A stretch of DNA of 47,428 nt from the IMG/VR virus record IMGVR_UViG_2574180238_000003; one strand, 5' to 3'. A program made the position numbers and the translations under genes. A model generated the notes under the pieces. That model was not told where the DNA came from, searched no databases, and saw only the letters and a list, made by a program, of their open reading frames with translations. Position 1 is the stretch's first letter, and every line of letters starts with the position of its first letter. Positions 12,820 to 21,256 of this stretch are shown in pieces. The stretch is from a virus (lineage: Duplodnaviria; Heunggongvirae; Uroviricota; Caudoviricetes).

Positions 12820-13179
12820 ATGCTCATAGATTTGGTTTTACCTTACCCGCCGACGGTGAACACTTACTGGCGTCGTCGTGGCAGCACATATTTTGTCTCA
12901 AAAGCCGGGGAGCGTTATCGCCGGGCAGTGGCGCTTATTGTTCGCCAGCAGCGGCTGAAATTAAGACTGTCCGGACGGCTGGCAATAAAAATTATTGCAG
13001 AGCCACCGGATAAGCGTCGTCGTGACCTGGACAATATTCTGAAAGCGCCGCTGGATGCGCTGACGCATGCGGGAATGTTAATGGACGATGAGCAGTTTGA
13101 TGAAATCAATATTGTACGTGGTCAGCCAGTATCTGGTGGACGGCTGGGTGTGAAGATTTACAAAATTGAGAGTGAGTGA
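12820..13179 (+). CDS. rusA: RusA Holliday-junction resolvase
   Basis: 119-aa ORF; LPYPPTVNTYWR... N-terminus and the DKRRRDLDN acidic motif match the RusA family; nin-region position upstream of Q. Confidence 0.85.
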   Translation: MLIDLVLPYPPTVNTYWRRRGSTYFVSKAGERYRRAVALIVRQQRLKLRLSGRLAIKIIAEPPDKRRRDLDNILKAPLDALTHAGMLMDDEQFDEINIVRGQPVSGGRLGVKIYKIESE

Positions 13180-13187
13180 GCGTAAAT

Positions 13188-13718
13188 ATGATATATCCGG
13201 AAATTACAGGCAAAAGCGGCGAACATTTACGCCTGAACACGCTGGAAGCAGTCTGGATCCAGGGGAAATTACGGATGTGGGGGCGGTGGTCGTATATCGG
13301 TGGGGGTAAATCCGGAAATATGTTTAACCGGTTACTGGTTTCGAAAAAACTGACGAAAACCGCAGTTAATGAGGTTTTACGCAGAATGAAGAAATCCGGG
13401 CTGGATAAACCGGAACTTGAGGCATTTTTTCGGGATATGACAAGAGGAAAGCAGAAGAGCTGGTTGTCACATTGTACAGACACAGAGGCGTTGATTATTG
13501 ATCGCGTTATCAGTGAGGTGCTTGGGGAATATCCCGGGCTAATCAATGTTCTCCGGCAAAGGTACGAAGGACGGGGAATGAGTAAGAGAAAAATGGCAGA
13601 ATGTTTAAATCGTACTCACCCGGAATGGTGCTTCAGCACATGTGAGAAACGTATTGCAGGTTGGTTAGCCGTGGCTGAACACATGCTTTATGTACCTATG
13701 CACGATTCATTTCGATAA
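13188..13718 (+). CDS. Late-gene antiterminator Q
   Basis: 176-aa ORF directly upstream of the late region (methylase, tRNAs, lysis genes), downstream of rusA; Cys/His-containing C-terminus; assigned mainly by position and size. Confidence 0.65.
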   Translation: MIYPEITGKSGEHLRLNTLEAVWIQGKLRMWGRWSYIGGGKSGNMFNRLLVSKKLTKTAVNEVLRRMKKSGLDKPELEAFFRDMTRGKQKSWLSHCTDTEALIIDRVISEVLGEYPGLINVLRQRYEGRGMSKRKMAECLNRTHPEWCFSTCEKRIAGWLAVAEHMLYVPMHDSFR

Positions 13719-13959: not shown

Positions 13960-14157
13960 ATGCTGAAACAGCAGGATATGACAGAAACCGCCAGAGCAGT
14001 GTTTAATGAATTAAGCGTCACCGAACCGGCGACAGTCGGGGAGATTGCGCAGAATACTTACCTTTCACGCGAACGCTGCCAGTTAATACTGACCCAGCTT
14101 GTTATGGCGGGTCTGGCAGACTATCAGTTCGGTTGTTACAGACGCCTTCGGTCCTGA
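13960..14157 (+). CDS. Hypothetical small protein
   Basis: 66-aa ORF from an internal Met (MLKQQDMTETARAVF...), preceded by an AAGGGA purine-rich stretch. Confidence 0.4.
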   Translation: MLKQQDMTETARAVFNELSVTEPATVGEIAQNTYLSRERCQLILTQLVMAGLADYQFGCYRRLRS

Positions 14158-14307
14158 AGGCTTTTTTATTTGTGGTAAATGGGCGGCTGGTGGGTGTTAG
14201 GGGCACTCACCAGCCATCTGCTCATGCGTCCGGATCACAAGCAAACCTCAGGCCCACTGCTTTGCGCAAAAGCAGAATGAGCCTATCAGAGACAGGCTTA
14301 ATGATCC

Positions 14308-15366
14308 ATGTTTAATACTGTAAAAATATCCAGTTGTGAGTTGATCAACGCTGACTGCCTGGAATTTATCCGGTCGTTACCCGAAAATTCTGTTGACCTG
14401 ATAGTCACGGCCCCGCCGTACTTTAAAGTGAAGCCTGAGGGCTGGGATAACCAGTGGAAGGGCGACGATGATTACCTGAAATGGCTGGACCAGTGTCTGG
14501 CGCAGTTCTGGCGGGTGCTGAAACCTGCCGGAAGTCTTTACCTGTTCTGTGGCCATCGCCTGGCATCTGACATTGAAATCATGATGCGAGAACGCTTCAG
14601 TGTGCTGAACCATATTATCTGGGCGAAGCCGTCCGGACGCTGGAACGGGTGCAACAAGGAAAGCCTGAGGGCGTATTTCCCCGCCACAGAGCGCATTCTG
14701 TTCGCGGAACATTATCAGGGGCCGTATCGTCCGAAAGATGCCGGGTATGAGGCGAAGGGCAGGGCACTGAAACAGCATGTGATGGCACCGCTGATTGCTT
14801 ACTTTCGTGATGCGCGTGCTGCCCTGGGGATAACGGCAAAACAGATTGCTGATGCCACAGGAAAGAAAAACATGGTGTCGCACTGGTTCAGTGCCAGTCA
14901 GTGGCAGTTACCGAACGAAAGCGATTATCTGAAATTACAGGTGCTGTTTGCCCGGGTGGCAGAAGAGAAGCATCAGCGGGGTGAACTGGAAAAGCCCCAC
15001 CACCAGCTGCTGGAGACGTATACTTCACTGAACCGGCAGTATGCGGAACTGCAGAGTGAATATAAGCATCTGCGGCGGTATTTTGGCGTGACGGCGCAGG
15101 TGCCGTACACGGATGTGTGGACGCATAAACCGGTGCAGTACTATCCCGGGAAACATCCGTGCGAAAAACCGGCAGAAATGCTGCAGCAGATAATCAGCGC
15201 GAGCAGTCGTCCGGGTGACCTGGTTGCAGATTTTTTCATGGGGTCGGGTTCGACAGTCAAAGCCGCGATGGCGCTGGGGCGGCGTGCAACTGGCGTTGAG
15301 CTGGGGACTGAACGTTTTGAGCAGACGGTCAGAGAAGTTCAGGATTTAGTCAGTCAGAACGGATGA
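14308..15366 (+). CDS. Orphan DNA methyltransferase (beta-class amino-MTase)
   Basis: 352-aa ORF; catalytic TAPPY motif near the N-terminus and AdoMet-binding FMGSGST near the C-terminus (circularly permuted order typical of beta-class MTases); no adjacent restriction enzyme. Confidence 0.85.
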   Translation: MFNTVKISSCELINADCLEFIRSLPENSVDLIVTAPPYFKVKPEGWDNQWKGDDDYLKWLDQCLAQFWRVLKPAGSLYLFCGHRLASDIEIMMRERFSVLNHIIWAKPSGRWNGCNKESLRAYFPATERILFAEHYQGPYRPKDAGYEAKGRALKQHVMAPLIAYFRDARAALGITAKQIADATGKKNMVSHWFSASQWQLPNESDYLKLQVLFARVAEEKHQRGELEKPHHQLLETYTSLNRQYAELQSEYKHLRRYFGVTAQVPYTDVWTHKPVQYYPGKHPCEKPAEMLQQIISASSRPGDLVADFFMGSGSTVKAAMALGRRATGVELGTERFEQTVREVQDLVSQNG

Positions 15367-15406: not shown

Positions 15407-15482
15407 GGCCCTTTAGCTCAGTGGTGAGAGCGAGCGACTCATAATCGCCAGGTCGCTGGTTCAAATCCAGCAAGGGCCACCA
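15407..15482 (+). tRNA. tRNA with CAU anticodon (Ile2/lysidine-type, ileZ-like; Met not excluded)
   Basis: 76-nt cloverleaf: acceptor GGCCCTT/AAGGGCC, D-arm GCTC..GAGC, anticodon loop CTCATAA, T-loop GGTTCAAATCC, 3' ACCA encoded; close to recalled E. coli ileX. Confidence 0.85.
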
Positions 15483-15491
15483 TATCACATA

Positions 15492-15568
15492 CCGCCATTA
15501 GCTCATCGGGATAGAGCGCCAGCCTTCGAAGCTGGCTGCGCGGGGTTCGAGTCCTCGATGGCGGTCCA
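15492..15568 (+). tRNA. tRNA-Arg (anticodon UCG)
   Basis: 77-nt cloverleaf: acceptor CCGCCAT/ATGGCGG, anticodon stem CCAGC/GCTGG with loop CTTCGAA, T-arm CGGGG-TTCGAGT-CCTCG, 3' TCCA. Confidence 0.8.
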
Positions 15569-15846
15569 TTATCTGCATTATGCGTTGTTGGTTCTGATGA
15601 GTGAATCATTGTCTTTTGAGCAACAGGCTATCATATAAGATAGCCTCAGACTTCCTTGTTTATTCTCGCCGGATGCTTCGTAGATATTTGCAGGCATCTG
15701 TATGCAGGGGTATTATTGCGGCATATATCATCCGGAAAAATAAAAACTACATGCTGATCCGGAGATGATAGTTACAAGTCCTCCCGGATCCCGCATATTT
15801 ACTATATTTTATAGATAATTGTTCTTGTTAATATGGAGATGGATAA

Positions 15847-16275
15847 ATGTATTGCCGTGCTGTACCGGTTCTTGTTTTGATATTAGCCAGTCTGACAACT
15901 GGCTGCACAAAAGATGTATCGACAAATAATCATGATGCTTCTCTGTATCACTCAGATAAATTAATAAAGTCGCAAAATTTGAGCTCATCGGAACGTACCC
16001 CTGATGCCAGTGAAGAAATCCGGCAGTATGCCATTCAGGTCAGGAAAGCCATAGAAGAACAGTTAAAGGATGCGAGTAAGTATTCAGGAAAAGAGTGTTC
16101 ACTGAGAATGTATATGGCCCCGAATGGTCTTCTGCTACAGGTTAAAAGAGAAAGCGGTGATCCCGATTTATGTCGTGAAGCGATGAATGCAGTAAAGAAT
16201 GCTGATATACCATCACCACCGTCTTCAGGAGTATATAAAGCATTTAGAAATGGCGTGCTGGATTTTAAACTCTGA
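15847..16275 (+). CDS. Lipoprotein with TolA C-terminal domain (domain III)-like region
   Basis: Signal peptide plus lipobox LTTGC; C-terminal ~80 aa (IQVRKAIEEQLKDASKYSGKECSLRMYMAPNGLLLQVKRESGDPDLCREAMNAVKNADIPSPPSSGVYKAFRNGVLDFKL) align to recalled E. coli TolA domain III including the conserved Cys pair; AT-rich upstream flank. Confidence 0.7.
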   Translation: MYCRAVPVLVLILASLTTGCTKDVSTNNHDASLYHSDKLIKSQNLSSSERTPDASEEIRQYAIQVRKAIEEQLKDASKYSGKECSLRMYMAPNGLLLQVKRESGDPDLCREAMNAVKNADIPSPPSSGVYKAFRNGVLDFKL

Positions 16276-16334
16276 CAGGGGGAGAAGATTTTCTCCTGTC
16301 CTGATGATTTTGGGGCGCTGGAAAGATATTGTGC

Positions 16335-16590
16335 TGTGAAGTGTTAAATCCCTCACAATTCAGTAAGTTGACAGTTGCCTGTCAGACTGAGCATTTGTTA
16401 AAAAAATTTCGCATGGTGAATCCCCCTGTGCGGAGGGGCGACTGGTGAACGGTATGATCTCTTTGATGATCGTAAGCGAGAATACGCGGGTTTGGTGTCA
16501 CCGGGCTGAACTCACCGGGAGGCACCCGGCACCATGCTCATGGTGATACAGAAATGCGGCTTCAGCCCCTCTCCGGAGGGGCTTTCTTAT
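16335..16590 (+). repeat. Structured repeat unit 1 of 4 (candidate sRNA)
   Basis: Conserved blocks ttaaatccctcacaattcag, gcatggtgaatccccctgtgcggaggggc, caccgggaggcacccggcaccatgc, and terminator hairpin gcccctctccggaggggc with T-run. Confidence 0.6.
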
Positions 16591-16746
16591 GGACAAAAAA
16601 AGCCCGCGCTGGGAGACGCGGGCGGCAAGGAATAAACAATAAAACGTGAAGTAATACTTCAACTGGCGAATAATACCCGACAGTAATCACTCTGCGCAAT
16701 AGCGTGGCCTTTTTCGAATTGCGGGCTGTAGTCTCCCTTCTGCCGG

Positions 16747-16970: not shown

Positions 16971-17696
16971 ATGGATGTTGCCTGCTCTGTGGTCCTGATT
17001 CGCTATCCGATAGATATTTTTCTTGAAAAAGAAAAAGTTTCACTCGATGCCGGAAGTGTTATGCTTGTTGCCAGAAATATAAGAGGGCTTTTCTGTGCTT
17101 ATGCCGACAGAGTGAAAATGGCAGATATAAGTAACAGCGTCGTCAATCAGTATCTGGAAAGGGAGTGTGAACTGACGGAGTATACACCGACAAAAATGCC
17201 TCTTTATTTGATGTCTGATATTTACAATACGGAACTGGCGGAGGCTTTAATAACCCAGCATAGTGAATCCAGTGATACTTTGAAGGATTTCTCTGTTATA
17301 ACCGCATTTTCATGTATCTCCTTATTTGCAACAGACAGACGTCTGCCATTATTTTTGTCCGGTGCTGTAAATAATATCAGCTGTAAAGTAAGGGCTATAA
17401 TTCAGACCGACATATCGGCAGGCTGGATGCTTGGTGTGATTGCATTACAATTGCATATGAGCGAAAGCTTGTTGAAGCGAAAACTTAAGGATGAAGGTTA
17501 TAGCTTTAGTCGGTTGTTGCTGGAGGAGCGAATGCGTGTTGCTGTTAATCTTGTATGTTTCCAGCGAGAGTGTGGACAAGCGATAGCGGAAAAATGTGGT
17601 TACTCAAGTAAGTCCTACTTCATTTCTGTATTTCACCAGTATTATGGTGCACCACCTGAGAGCTATGCATATTTGCAGAAAGCAGACGTTATCTGA
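16971..17696 (+). CDS. AraC-family transcriptional regulator
   Basis: 241-aa ORF; C-terminal AraC-type dual HTH (GWMLGVIALQLHMSESLLKRKLKDEGYSFSRLLLEERMRVAVNLV...KCGYSSKSYFISVFHQYYGAPPESY); AT-rich gene in the accessory block. Confidence 0.8.
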   Translation: MDVACSVVLIRYPIDIFLEKEKVSLDAGSVMLVARNIRGLFCAYADRVKMADISNSVVNQYLERECELTEYTPTKMPLYLMSDIYNTELAEALITQHSESSDTLKDFSVITAFSCISLFATDRRLPLFLSGAVNNISCKVRAIIQTDISAGWMLGVIALQLHMSESLLKRKLKDEGYSFSRLLLEERMRVAVNLVCFQRECGQAIAEKCGYSSKSYFISVFHQYYGAPPESYAYLQKADVI

Positions 17697-18304: not shown

Positions 18305-18548
18305 TCATGGAAATGTTAAATGACTCACAATTCGGTTGATGGGCTATTGTCTGATCGATGGAAGTCTTGTAAAAACGAGCCAGCATAGTGAATCCCCCTG
18401 TGCGGAGGGGCGTCTGACATGGTCTCCATAGCGATGGTCACAATACGCAGATTCAGTAGTCAGGCTGAATCTACCGGGAGGCACCCGGCACTATGCTGCT
18501 TATGGTGTATACATAGCGATCGGCCCCTCTCCGGAGGGGCTTTTTTTG
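18305..18548 (+). repeat. Structured repeat unit 2 of 4
   Basis: Same block order as unit 1; long-range helix gcatagtg (18383-18390) / cactatgc (18489-18496) carries a compensatory base-pair change relative to unit 1; terminator gcccctctccggaggggc plus T7. Confidence 0.6.
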
Positions 18549-18564
18549 TGCGGGAAAAGGCTGT

Positions 18565-18806
18565 GTTGTTAAGTGTTAAATTCCTCACAGTTCAGATGGT
18601 TGATGCTTGCCTGTCTGAGGGGGCGTTGTTAAAAAAGTTCTGCATGGTGAATCCCCCTGAGCGGAGGGGCATATCAGCGCAGGTGTTTCTACTCTATCCT
18701 TTCTGTGCGGGTTCAGGTGCTGATACTGAACTCATCGGGAGGCACCCGGCATCATGCATATGGTTAACAGACACGTAGCGAAGCCCCTCTCCGGAGGGGC
18801 TTTTTT
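18565..18806 (+). repeat. Structured repeat unit 3 of 4
   Basis: Same blocks; helix gcatggtg / catcatgc (G-U wobble); terminator gcccctctccggaggggc plus T6. Confidence 0.6.
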
Positions 18807-18824
18807 ATGCAGGGAAAAGGCTGT

Positions 18825-19062
18825 GTTGTGAAATGTTAAATTCCTCACAATTCATGAGGTTGATGATTGTCTGATTGATGAGGAGTTTGTTAAAAAAAAC
18901 GGGCATGGTGAATCCCCCTGTGCGGAGGGGTGATATCGTATCATTTCCTGTGTGGCCGACTGATATCACGGACATTTGTTCACCGGGAGGCACCCGGCAC
19001 CATGCAGTATACAGAGATTAGGCATACATCCAGGCTCCTCATCGCAGGAGCCTTTTTACATG
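18825..19062 (+). repeat. Structured repeat unit 4 of 4
   Basis: Same blocks; helix gcatggtg / caccatgc; different terminator sequence (ggctcctcatcgcaggagcc plus T5) in the same position. Confidence 0.6.
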
Positions 19063-19291
19063 TAAAAAAAAAAACGCTCCTGGGAAGAGCGGTTGGCAAG
19101 GAAGCAAGGAATAAATAACAAAACGTGAAGTAATTTATTCAGCACCCTAATAATACCTTAGAGTAATCACATTGCGCAACTGTAAGGGCGTATTTCTTTT
19201 TTGCGGGCTGTTTTTCTGTGTGACTTTTGTGTTTCCGGAGGTCAGCCCGTGCCTTCTCTGACTCAGAACATTATCCCGGCCGGGAGGATTC

Positions 19292-21256
19292 ATGGCATTT
19301 AAACACTACGATGTGGTCAGGGCGGCATCGCCGTCAGACCTTGCTGAACGACTGACACAAAAACTGAAGGAGGGCTGGCAGCCATTTGGCAGTCCGGTGG
19401 CCATCACGCCTTATACCCTGATGCAGGCCATTGCGGCGGAAGGTGATGTCACCACACCAGTGGCGGTGACCGGTAATGAGGGTAAGGCGGTGGCTGTCAG
19501 TGCCACCAGCGACCCGGAGTATTACTTTGTTGTGGTTCTGGCAGGGCAGTCAAATGGCATGTCGTATGGTGAAGGTCTTCCGCTGCCGGAGACATATGAC
19601 CGTCCGGACCCGCGCATTAAGCAGCTGGCGCGCCGCAGTACGGTGACACCGGGCGGTGCAGCATGCAAATATAACGACATCATTCCGGCGGACCATTGTC
19701 TGCATGATGTGCAGGACATGAGCCGCCTTAACCATCCGAAAGCGGACCTGTCAAAGGGGCAGTACGGTACCGTGGGGCAGGGGCTGCATATCGCCAAAAA
19801 ACTGCTGCCGTTTATACCGGCGAATGCGGGTATTCTGCTGGTTCCGTGCTGTCGTGGGGGTTCAGCGTTCACCACCGGAGCTGATGGCACATACAGTGAC
19901 GCTGGCGGTGCCTCGGAGAATTCAGCGCGCTGGGGTGTGGACAAGCCGCTGTATAAGGACCTTATCGGTCGAACAAAAGCAGCACTGAAGAAGAACCCGA
20001 AAAATGTGCTGTTTGCCGTGGTGTGGATGCAGGGGGAATTTGATTTTGACGGCACGCCCGGAAATCACGCAGCACAGTTTGGTGCGCTGGTTGATAAATT
20101 CCGTGCAGACCTGGCGGATATGGCAGGCCAGTGCGTCAGTGGCTCTGCTGGCGGTGTTCCCTGGATATGCGGGGACACGACGTATTTCTGGAAGCAGAAG
20201 AACGAATCCACGTACCAGACGGTGTACGGCAGCTATAAAAACAAAACGGAAAAGAATATCCATTTCGTACCGTTCATGACGGATGAGAACGGGGTGAATG
20301 TGCCGACGAACAAACCGGAAGAAGACCCGGACATTCCGGGTATCGGGTATTACGGTTCGAAATGGCGTGACAGCTCAGCCCCCTGGACGTCACAGGACAG
20401 GGCGAGCCATTTCAGCACCTGGGCACGCCGGGGGATTATTTCCGACCGTCTGGCAACGGCGATTCTGGTGCACGCCGGGAGAACCGCTGAATTCATTACC
20501 GGAAAACAGCCTGATATGGTGAAGCCCACCGTACCTTCCGGTGAAGGTCCGGAGAGAGAGGCGGAAGCCCCGGTCAGTAACCGAACCCTGATGAGTCTGC
20601 TGGCATCCGGCGAAGACCTGGCATCACAGGGCTGGCGCTATTATCACAAACCGGCGGGCGGGGACAGTGTTAACAAAAACATTGCTGAAGCGGTGGTCAG
20701 TGATGCGGGGGCTACGGGAGGTAAGGCTCTGCAACTGAACAAACCGGAAAACCACATCTGGTTTCTGGAGCATGATGCAGCCGGACAGGGTGCGGAGTTA
20801 CTGAAGAAGGGCGGACGTGTGAGCGTACGGTTTAAGTTGCCGGGTTCACTGGTGCCGAATCAGTTTGCCCTGGGCATTTACTGGCAGTTGTCGTCCCTGC
20901 CGGAGGGGGTGACGCTGTCAGGAGAAGGTAACGATATGCTGATGTCTTTCTTCCTGCAGACGGATACGACGAACCTGAACGCGATGCATCACAGGAAGCC
21001 GAATGCGAAGCTGGATACATTCGGGGTCTTTGATAACGGATGGCACACGCTGGCTTTTGAGTTTGCCGGAAACAACAGCATTCAGGTGACACCAGTACTG
21101 GATGAGAAACGGGGAGCGGCGTTCACACTGGTGAAGTCACCGGCATCGGGGGCGGCGGACAAACTGCAACTGACCGATATATCAAAATCGGCGACGTATA
21201 CGCTGCTGATTGACAGCATTGCGGTGGAAGTGAACAGCACAGACACTGCGGCATGA
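19292..21256 (+). CDS. NanS-p-type sialate O-acetylesterase (SGNH/SASA hydrolase)
   Basis: 654-aa ORF; GQSN catalytic motif (VVVLAGQSNGMSYGEG); location between Q/tRNAs and the lysis cassette as in Stx-type lambdoid phages. Confidence 0.75.
   Translation: MAFKHYDVVRAASPSDLAERLTQKLKEGWQPFGSPVAITPYTLMQAIAAEGDVTTPVAVTGNEGKAVAVSATSDPEYYFVVVLAGQSNGMSYGEGLPLPETYDRPDPRIKQLARRSTVTPGGAACKYNDIIPADHCLHDVQDMSRLNHPKADLSKGQYGTVGQGLHIAKKLLPFIPANAGILLVPCCRGGSAFTTGADGTYSDAGGASENSARWGVDKPLYKDLIGRTKAALKKNPKNVLFAVVWMQGEFDFDGTPGNHAAQFGALVDKFRADLADMAGQCVSGSAGGVPWICGDTTYFWKQKNESTYQTVYGSYKNKTEKNIHFVPFMTDENGVNVPTNKPEEDPDIPGIGYYGSKWRDSSAPWTSQDRASHFSTWARRGIISDRLATAILVHAGRTAEFITGKQPDMVKPTVPSGEGPEREAEAPVSNRTLMSLLASGEDLASQGWRYYHKPAGGDSVNKNIAEAVVSDAGATGGKALQLNKPENHIWFLEHDAAGQGAELLKKGGRVSVRFKLPGSLVPNQFALGIYWQLSSLPEGVTLSGEGNDMLMSFFLQTDTTNLNAMHHRKPNAKLDTFGVFDNGWHTLAFEFAGNNSIQVTPVLDEKRGAAFTLVKSPASGAADKLQLTDISKSATYTLLIDSIAVEVNSTDTAA

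Follow-up and report, generated by a model that had tools for sequence, protein, structure and literature searches.

A prophage-encoded lipoprotein with a TolA domain III as a possible decoy for Tol-dependent colicins and phages

The virus record IMGVR_UViG_2574180238_000003 of the IMG/VR database, a stretch of 47,428 nucleotides (nt) that is called the window below, is a near-complete lambdoid prophage of E. coli and encodes a lipoprotein of 142 amino acids (aa) whose C-terminal 89 residues are a true homologue of domain III of TolA (TolA-III), with its alpha/beta fold and three-stranded sheet. The gene is maintained under purifying selection and is no debris, and by its position and base composition it is a lysogenic-conversion insert ('moron') between the late antiterminator gene Q and the lysis genes, in the slot that stx1AB occupies in Stx1 phages. 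We see about an even chance that the protein, tethered to the outer membrane, serves as a decoy for Tol-dependent colicins and for phages of the Ff type; as part of this reading, the window gene would be one allele of a wide decoy family that is carried by prophages and by plasmids with bacteriocin genes. The route of every group A colicin and every filamentous phage leads through TolA or TolB, and the natural protection known against them consists of specific immunity proteins, receptor loss and tol mutations, the last of which cripple the envelope. An earlier reading of the same DNA, made from the letters alone and referred to here as the sequence-only reading, had described a 142-aa open reading frame (ORF) with a lipoprotein signal, and this description holds with exact coordinates (15847..16275, plus strand).

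A TolA domain III behind a lipoprotein signal

The C-terminal part of the protein matches the Pfam family TolA C-terminal (PF06519; E=5.7e-23, 81.4 bits at a cut-off of 25) over residues 52-140 and profile positions 7-96 of 96, and in a phmmer search against the PDB, residues 54-141 were aligned with E. coli TolA-III (1S62, 3QDP, 2X9A, 1TOL), the E values lying between 1.6e-25 and 8e-25. Identity to E. coli TolA-III is 51% in 89 columns. Both cysteines of TolA-III are present, Cys84 and Cys109 aligning to TolA C363 and C388 as a predicted disulfide pair, and the alignment that had been made by eye, cysteines included, is thereby borne out. Structure prediction had been named beforehand as a test, and its refuting outcome, a fold other than that of TolA-III, did not come about. 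The AlphaFold2 (AF2) model, built from ten family members, has a predicted local distance difference test (pLDDT) score of 72-91 at residues 52-142 and below 50 at residues 1-51, and it takes the TolA-III fold, matching 3QDR_A (E=2e-11) with a template modelling (TM) score of 0.88, normalised to the target, and a root-mean-square deviation of 1.4 Å; 2X9A_B and 1TOL were matched too. The domain comprises a helix (52-72), two strands (83-90 and 96-104), two further helices (106-118 and 127-134) and a C-terminal strand (137-141, LDFK). The word 'mimic' used in the sequence-only reading is therefore replaced here, since the domain is homologous to that of TolA.

The remainder of the protein is not that of TolA. 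The N-terminal inner-membrane anchor (domain I), which provides the coupling to TolQ-TolR, is absent and a lipoprotein signal peptide is found in its place, while the long Ala/Lys/Glu-rich helical domain II (TolA has about 420 aa in total) is absent from the 142-aa protein, the residues 21-53 of which are predicted to be disordered. The NCBIfam TolA models PRK09510 and TIGR02794 are aligned at their ends only, at positions 297-386 of 387 and 266-361 of 362, respectively. The score for PRK09510 (103) is below the cut-off of 213, whereas that for TIGR02794 (75.9) exceeds the cut-off of 59.45 through the C-terminal domain alone, which explains why RefSeq/PGAP labels the window gene tolA, "cell envelope integrity protein TolA". 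The gene lies outside any tolQRA-tolB-pal cluster and has phage genes on both sides, and the name tolA is a misnomer for this prophage lipoprotein. Under this label, the 897 RefSeq genomes of E. coli that carry such a prophage gene seem to hold more than one tolA gene.

The N-terminus (MYCRAVPVLVLILASLTTGC) has a single basic residue, a hydrophobic core of 12 residues and a Cys at position 20, and its layout, MYCR-AVPVLVLILASL-TTG-C, is that of a lipoprotein signal. Cys20 is unchanged across 25 divergent family members, and the position of the lipobox is kept in the three E. coli subtypes A, B and C (TTGC, TAGC and IIGC) as well as in 50 short relatives described below. The residue at +2 is Thr in the window protein, and Asp occurs at +2 in none of the inspected family members. 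Under the Lol sorting rule of E. coli, Asp at +2 leads to retention in the inner membrane; the Thr thus predicts that the window lipoprotein would be sorted to the outer membrane's inner leaflet. The tether between signal and domain contains D-K-L-I...L-S-S-S, which is similar by eye to the VDDLLGDLSSGKNAPK junction before domain III of real TolA. Many family members have the tether motif (E/Q)VDDL(F/L), which matches the VDDLLGDLSSGKNAPK junction of the real TolA fragment P0146, and the degenerate form of this motif in the window protein is SDKLIKSQNLSSSERTP (aa 32-53, window 15940-16005). Because of this match, the captured piece seems to include the junction of TolA domains II and III.

Two ligand-binding sites are known on TolA-III. 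Site one consists of strand beta3 (F412, A415-K420) and the first helix; g3p-N1, the N-terminus of TolB and colicin N are bound there by strand addition (PMC4339652, PMC7391070), and the TolA substitutions D418P and K420P abolish TolB binding and cause a tol phenotype (PMC4339652, PMC7391070). The affinity between TolA and TolB is weak, with a dissociation constant (Kd) of 40-200 µM (PMC7391070). Site two, on the opposite edge (L375-P380 with K368, K379 and K396), binds colicin A (PMC3365938). Site one has the sequence FNGVLDFK in the window protein versus FNAPLDFK in E. coli TolA, so that six of the eight residues are identical, versus 51% overall, and the first-helix residues Y340, A341, Q343, I348 and E349 are retained. 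Site two reads YLLQVKRK versus KLLDIKPK (four of eight identical), and the window protein differs from TolA in the colicin A contacts, where K368 is replaced by Y/H, D377 by Q/E and P380 by R. The plasmid relatives keep 5-7 of the eight residues of site one, except the very divergent pO157-type with 2, and 0-2 of the eight of site two. These numbers are small and the pattern is consistent, which suggests that the beta3 strand-addition site is preserved across the family. Judged from residue conservation, the window domain may be able to bind the TolB N-terminus, g3p-N1 and the TolA boxes of colicins by strand addition.

Distribution, selection and bacteriocin neighbours

The gene had been treated as a one-off of a single prophage; it is in fact one of a family with members in 897 of 5,426 complete E. 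coli genomes (16.5%; ORF-only blastn) and relatives on 1,321 of 72,556 plasmids (tblastn). A word-indexed search distinguished three E. coli subtypes (A, B and C), all of 142 aa, with the lipobox Cys and Thr at +2, that are 65-74% identical in pairwise comparison. The window allele (at least 95% identity) is present in about 107 of the 897 genomes, mostly from cattle-associated and Shiga-toxin-producing strains. A single deposited phage genome among 50,697, mEp460_ev081, carries the gene, and 61 IMG/VR loci hold family members (single-protein scan). In every locus checked, namely of the E. coli subtypes A and C, of phage mEp460 and of a Salmonella homologue (40% identical), the gene lies between Q and holin, with at least three different Q types upstream.

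Selection was estimated between the subtypes with the pairwise Nei-Gojobori method. The ratio of nonsynonymous to synonymous substitution rates (dN/dS) is 0.33-0.41 for the whole gene at a dS of 0.43-0.66, and by part it is 0.23-0.33 for the TolA-III domain and 0.2-0.9 for the tether; it is this ratio of about 0.3 between subtypes that identifies the gene as maintained. The idea of a pseudogene was given up on account of the selection and length-conservation data. Among the database variants of subtype C, several are frameshifted near residue 125, have lost the beta3 strand and end with ...RRKYIKYFKMGCWILNPD..., and others are truncated (P0019-P0029, P0037, P0038); they represent assembly errors or else alleles that lost their function naturally.

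When 1.84 billion cluster representatives were scanned exhaustively with HMMER, 305 matched. The best 150 of these matches include 50 proteins (Serratia, Kosakonia, Klebsiella and others) that are 115-170 aa long and have a lipobox and, at the C-terminus, TolA-III; all 50 bear the names TolA or "colicin import membrane protein". A neighbour-joining tree of low resolution places the short lipoproteins apart from the clade that the full-length TolAs form, and as far as such a rough tree can tell, the combination of lipoprotein and TolA-III is therefore an old architecture and no recent capture. The idea of a recent capture of host tolA was given up because of this position together with the 51% identity and the absence of any nucleotide match to host tolA in the complete E. 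coli genomes (ORF-only blastn). A third architecture is seen in proteins of 250-280 aa that have a cleavable signal peptide, are unrelated in their N-terminal part and carry TolA-III at the C-terminus (P0094, P0129, P0136, P0142, P0185, P0188).

Several relatives have bacteriocin genes as neighbours. ColRNAI plasmids of Klebsiella, 10 to 12 kilobases in size, carry the gene for a TolA-III lipoprotein together with a colicin-like tRNase bacteriocin, and on these plasmids the lipoprotein gene overlaps by 4 nt with the gene for a 121-aa TonB C-terminal-domain protein with a Sec signal. The same lipoprotein/TonB-domain pair is present on a cloacin-type contig of K. pneumoniae, a Salmonella contig has the TolA-III lipoprotein gene with MccV-like microcin genes, and another relative adjoins a colicin A-like pore-former and a putative immunity gene. 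Since these neighbours are bacteriocin genes and a secreted TonB C-terminal domain, interference with import is indicated. The ColRNAI-type lipoprotein is carried at an identity of at least 99% by about 376 plasmid records, and the tips of both energy transducers, TolA-III and the TonB C-terminal domain, are thus encoded as free copies in one operon. Other contexts differ: on IncR plasmids the TolA-III lipoprotein gene is found 3' of a gene for a periplasmic thioredoxin-fold protein, one relative lies within a phage- or satellite-like region, and two chromosomal sites, in K. aerogenes (AraC-type gene/mlrA) and Scandinavium (CLC channel/ABC transporter), have neither mobile-element nor bacteriocin neighbours.

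A decoy function and its alternatives

In the decoy reading, the lipoprotein would be exported by Sec and lipidated at Cys20, as its signal predicts, and after anchoring in the outer membrane it would show a folded, disulfide-bonded TolA-III just beneath that membrane, held by a disordered stretch of about 33 residues. This domain has no inner-membrane anchor and would be uncoupled from the TolQR motor. By analogy with TolA itself, colicin translocation domains and g3p would be caught at beta3 and the first helix on their emergence below the outer membrane. A captured ligand would be stuck in a complex that cannot be energised, which would result in less import of group A bacteriocins and Ff-type phages. 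The host Tol-Pal system would probably be disturbed only slightly by a modest amount of decoy, because TolA and TolB interact weakly. Parasitic ligands bind TolA-III near micromolar, and a modest decoy level could for these two reasons protect without a strong tol phenotype. The decoy function, already proposed in the sequence-only reading, is consistent with the conserved site for g3p-N1, colicin N and TolB, with the Thr at +2 that would put the domain where ligands enter, and with the bacteriocin genes nearby. A precedent works from the other side of the interface: cells in which periplasmic g3p-N1 or pIII sequesters TolA tolerate colicin A, and their phage uptake falls by 4 logs (PMC10424213).

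The window gene might also be the prophage branch of a general 'import-decoy' immunity layer on mobile elements of Enterobacterales, in which free TolA-III (as outer-membrane lipoprotein) and, on some bacteriocin plasmids and in the same operon, a secreted TonB C-terminal domain would sequester incoming bacteriocins and phage entry proteins by their Tol and Ton boxes; this wider proposal is tentative, and we place it below an even chance. If it is true, such a layer would be a broad, toxin-class-independent complement to specific immunity proteins and would parallel, in nature, the dominant-negative laboratory fragments of TolA-III and TonB.

A number of observations weigh against the decoy function. 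PADLOC gave no match for the protein, its PHROG family (5772) has no assigned function, and in the literature, which was partially accessible, no functional study of the window protein or of family members was found. The association with bacteriocins was seen in about four contexts out of the roughly twelve that were sampled, which are no statistical survey, and one of the four (MccV) concerns a Ton-dependent toxin. With the colicin A site half conserved, direct cover of all group A colicins is not to be expected, and the conserved beta3 site doubles as the TolB site, which makes the host Tol-Pal system an equally possible target. The promoter scan found no sigma-70-like promoter of at least 9/12 within 100 nt of the window ATG, and manual reading near this ATG gave GATAAT alone, without a credible -35. 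The window gene is moreover located downstream of Q and of a terminator-like hairpin, and for lack of a good promoter of its own its main production may fall in the late lytic phase, when colicin protection matters little. In subtype C, by contrast, a promoter-like TTGAGC-18-TATAAT (10/12) is present 30 nt upstream. LexA boxes were searched for and found at the bacteriocin genes only, with none upstream of the TolA-III genes and none at window positions 15569-15850; SOS co-regulation of the TolA-III genes was dropped on this ground, and the restriction counts in favour of the decoy, since it fits standing protection better than a co-induced release.

The shared TolB site is also what would be expected of a saboteur of Tol-Pal, which would cause a partial tol phenotype with a leaky outer membrane and more vesicles. 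This is the main alternative, and the sequence-only reading had already named modulation of Tol-Pal, but we consider it unlikely. As part of a late unit, such a protein would contribute to breaking down the envelope or to letting out phage or periplasmic cargo at lysis, and in lysogens more vesicles or an activation of Rcs/capsule could bring indirect phage resistance. The window allele lies between Q and the lysis cassette, past a terminator-like hairpin and without a good promoter of its own, as suits this role, whereas subtype C has the promoter-like site mentioned above and the phage is already equipped with holin, lysozyme and an Rz-type lysis protein. That beta3, where TolB binds, is the best-conserved functional surface argues for sabotage, as do TolA mutants without TolB binding, which have a tol phenotype (PMC4339652), and the co-overexpression of TolA-III, through which periplasmic protein is made to leak from E. 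coli cells (Wan and Baneyx, 1998, as cited in PMC2689190); the low affinity between TolA and TolB (PMC7391070) speaks against it. The family furthermore has plasmid members, for which there is no lytic cycle and for which chronic leakiness and sensitivity to detergent and bile would be costly in the gut, and the plasmid relatives are without SOS co-regulation with bacteriocin release. If interference with Tol-Pal is true, outer-membrane integrity and vesicle release would be under phage- or plasmid-encoded control.

A host-beneficial envelope lipoprotein that has nothing to do with invaders, for example an extra outer-membrane partner of TolB or of the peptidoglycan machinery under stress, like bor, is in our view improbable. 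It would leave the repeated placement next to bacteriocin genes and in the phage conversion slot unexplained, even if the chromosomal members in K. aerogenes and Scandinavium, which lack mobile-element and bacteriocin neighbours, and the pairing with a periplasmic thioredoxin-fold protein on IncR plasmids agree with it. We know of no mechanism by which a motor-less TolA-III would stabilise the envelope. The dissociation of TolB and Pal is thought to need force (PMC7391070), which also counts against such support. That the gene is a non-functional remnant, either a fragment of host tolA or a decaying gene, is very improbable indeed: the frameshifted and truncated database variants could be taken as signs of decay, whereas the window protein has only half of its domain residues in common with host TolA-III at the protein level, has no match to host tolA at the nucleotide level, and has gained a lipoprotein signal that is absent from TolA, and the subtypes, at a dS of 0.45-0.66, combine a dN/dS of about 0.3 with a conserved length of 142 aa in a widespread family.

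The TolA-III domain and its fold, the dominant-negative effect of free TolA-III and excluding phage lipoproteins such as Llp and Cor were already known. With E. coli TolA-III the window protein shares a homologous domain with the same fold, the predicted disulfide pair, beta3 (LDFK) and Y340/I348/E349, whereas TolA has a TolQR-coupling anchor, domain II and a tol-pal operon in place of the predicted outer-membrane lipid tether and the prophage locus. Llp of T5 and Cor of phi80, N15 and mEp phages are small lipoproteins of the inner leaflet of the outer membrane that stop the entry of phages and colicins and inactivate FhuA. The window protein resembles them as a small phage-encoded lipoprotein, predicted at the same leaflet, that would act at the envelope; it is unrelated in sequence and would be a decoy of a periplasmic co-receptor, whereas Llp and Cor plug an outer-membrane receptor. 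In the work of Levengood-Freyermuth et al. from 1993 on the TolA C-terminal domain, free TolA-III is said to have disturbed Tol-dependent import and outer-membrane integrity. This recombinant periplasmic TolA-III, like that of Wan and Baneyx (1998), is a free domain uncoupled from the motor, but the laboratory constructs were overexpressed, soluble and host-identical, in contrast to a protein that is natural, diverged, predicted to be lipid-anchored, under selection and mobile. Exclusion by the pIII of filamentous phages blocks the same interface between TolA-III and its ligands (PMC10424213), with the difference that pIII occupies the host receptor, while here the invader would be occupied by a receptor copy, and the two proteins are non-homologous. 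In the literature, to which access was partial, no account was found of TolA-III as a functional entity that is natural, mobile and lipid-anchored, and the single paper that mentions plasmid TolA-III genes offers no interpretation of them.

If the decoy function is true, it would be a new, cheap, broad and transferable mechanism of tolerance against Tol-dependent invaders, and it would affect the control of pathogens by colicins, klebicins and phages as well as the competition of strains in the gut. The carriers include about one in six sequenced E. coli, among them many non-O157 Shiga-toxin-producing strains from cattle, and common Klebsiella plasmids, and the reading of hundreds of "tolA" gene calls in RefSeq would be affected. 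Natural diverged variants of TolA-III are also useful for separating the surface that serves TolB from that which serves invaders.

The conversion slot and neighbouring features

The AT-rich insert after Q and the tRNA genes that the sequence-only reading had placed in a prophage is recovered in the annotation (Table 1), with a GC content of 0.39-0.42 over 15600-16350 versus 0.53-0.57 upstream, as expected of a conversion insert. The DNA just 3' of the lipoprotein ORF is an 88% match to the segment directly after stx1B in AP005153 and H-19B. In AP005153 the gene order is Q, promoter and terminator, stx1A, stx1B, STnc100-like element, YjhS-like ORF, S and R, and it is because the STnc100-like segment also follows stx1B in Stx1 phages that the slot of the lipoprotein gene is recognised as that of the Shiga toxin genes. 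Both kinds of locus thus have the same slot downstream of Q and tRNA genes, the same element after it and a low GC content, and they differ in their cargo, which is an envelope lipoprotein in the window and not a toxin. The hairpin downstream of Q is by its position a candidate tR', and if it is tR', the lipoprotein gene would belong to the Q-dependent late unit. Holin, lysozyme and Rz-type genes follow the 654-aa ORF.

Table 1. Features of the lipoprotein gene, its surroundings in the window and related loci on plasmids.
Feature	Location (window unless stated)	Strand	Basis or remark
TolA-III lipoprotein gene, 142 aa	15847..16275, including stop codon	+	ORF list; ATG start
Shine-Dalgarno-like GGAG, ATG 8 nt downstream	15835..15838	+	sequence reading
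Signal peptide and lipobox L-T-T-G-C, aa 1-20; Cys20 predicted lipidated residue	15847..15906	+	sequence
Disordered tether, about 33 residues, aa 21-53	15907..16005	+	AF2 pLDDT
TolA domain III, aa 54-142	16006..16272	+	PDB search, AF2 model, structural match, alignment
Late antiterminator Q, DUF1133 type	13176..13718	+	Pfam DUF1133 E=1e-110, Phage_antitermQ E=2e-8
Terminator-like hairpin then T-run, candidate tR'	14144..14161	+	consensus scan
DNA methyltransferase, N6_N4_Mtase	14308..15366	+	Pfam E=1.6e-42
tRNA gene, anticodon CAT	15407..15482	+	ARAGORN, Rfam tRNA
tRNA gene, anticodon TCG	15492..15568	+	ARAGORN, Rfam tRNA
STnc100-like RNA element, 3' border of insert	16382..16594	+	Rfam RF02076, 172 bits
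Terminator-like hairpin closing the first STnc100-like element	16564-16583		hairpin scan
AraC-type regulator gene, 241 aa, HTH_18/HTH_AraC	16971-17696		same low-GC region, about 700 nt 3' of lipoprotein gene
Further STnc100-like copies	18354-18549, 18614-18812, 18874-19063		Rfam RF02076
654-aa ORF	19292-21256		length and position as SASA-family carbohydrate esterase annotated in near-identical locus L001
Lipoprotein/TonB-domain gene pair	L073, K. pneumoniae ColRNAI plasmid NZ_CP026582.3, 2725-3096 and 3093-3458		
Lipoprotein/TonB-domain gene pair	L072, 7001-7369 and 7366-7584		
Thioredoxin-fold (DsbC-like) gene, then 144-aa TolA-III lipoprotein	L074, IncR plasmid NZ_CP143922.1, 6406-6954 and 7001-7435		
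Divergent lipoprotein	L075, pO157-like IncF plasmid NZ_CP028664.1, 5947-6378		28% identity, lipobox VAGC, TolA C-terminal domain

All four STnc100-like copies score 120-172 bits, have the common core CATGGTGAATCCCCCTGTGCGGAGGGGC and flank low-GC inserts, and the element may mark or mediate the exchange of cassettes within the Q-to-S region. The tRNA gene with anticodon CAT is called Met by ARAGORN, and the equivalent gene in the near-identical locus L001 is a tRNA-Ile in RefSeq; we take it to be a lysidine-type Ile2 tRNA, like those of the tRNA clusters of Stx phages.

On plasmids, the pairing of thioredoxin-fold and TolA-III genes is found on many IncR/IncF plasmids of Klebsiella and Enterobacter, and the thioredoxin-fold protein may serve specifically to help the domain, with its two cysteines, form the disulfide. 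The pO157-type gene comes after psiB-psiA-hok and before toxB, and its beta3 strand is not conserved (FDMR). An AraC-type neighbour, as in the window, recurs in K. aerogenes, where the chromosomal TolA-III lipoprotein gene is directly 3' of a short AraC-type gene (L070, 6524-6883), which may reflect a coincidence or a regulatory link.

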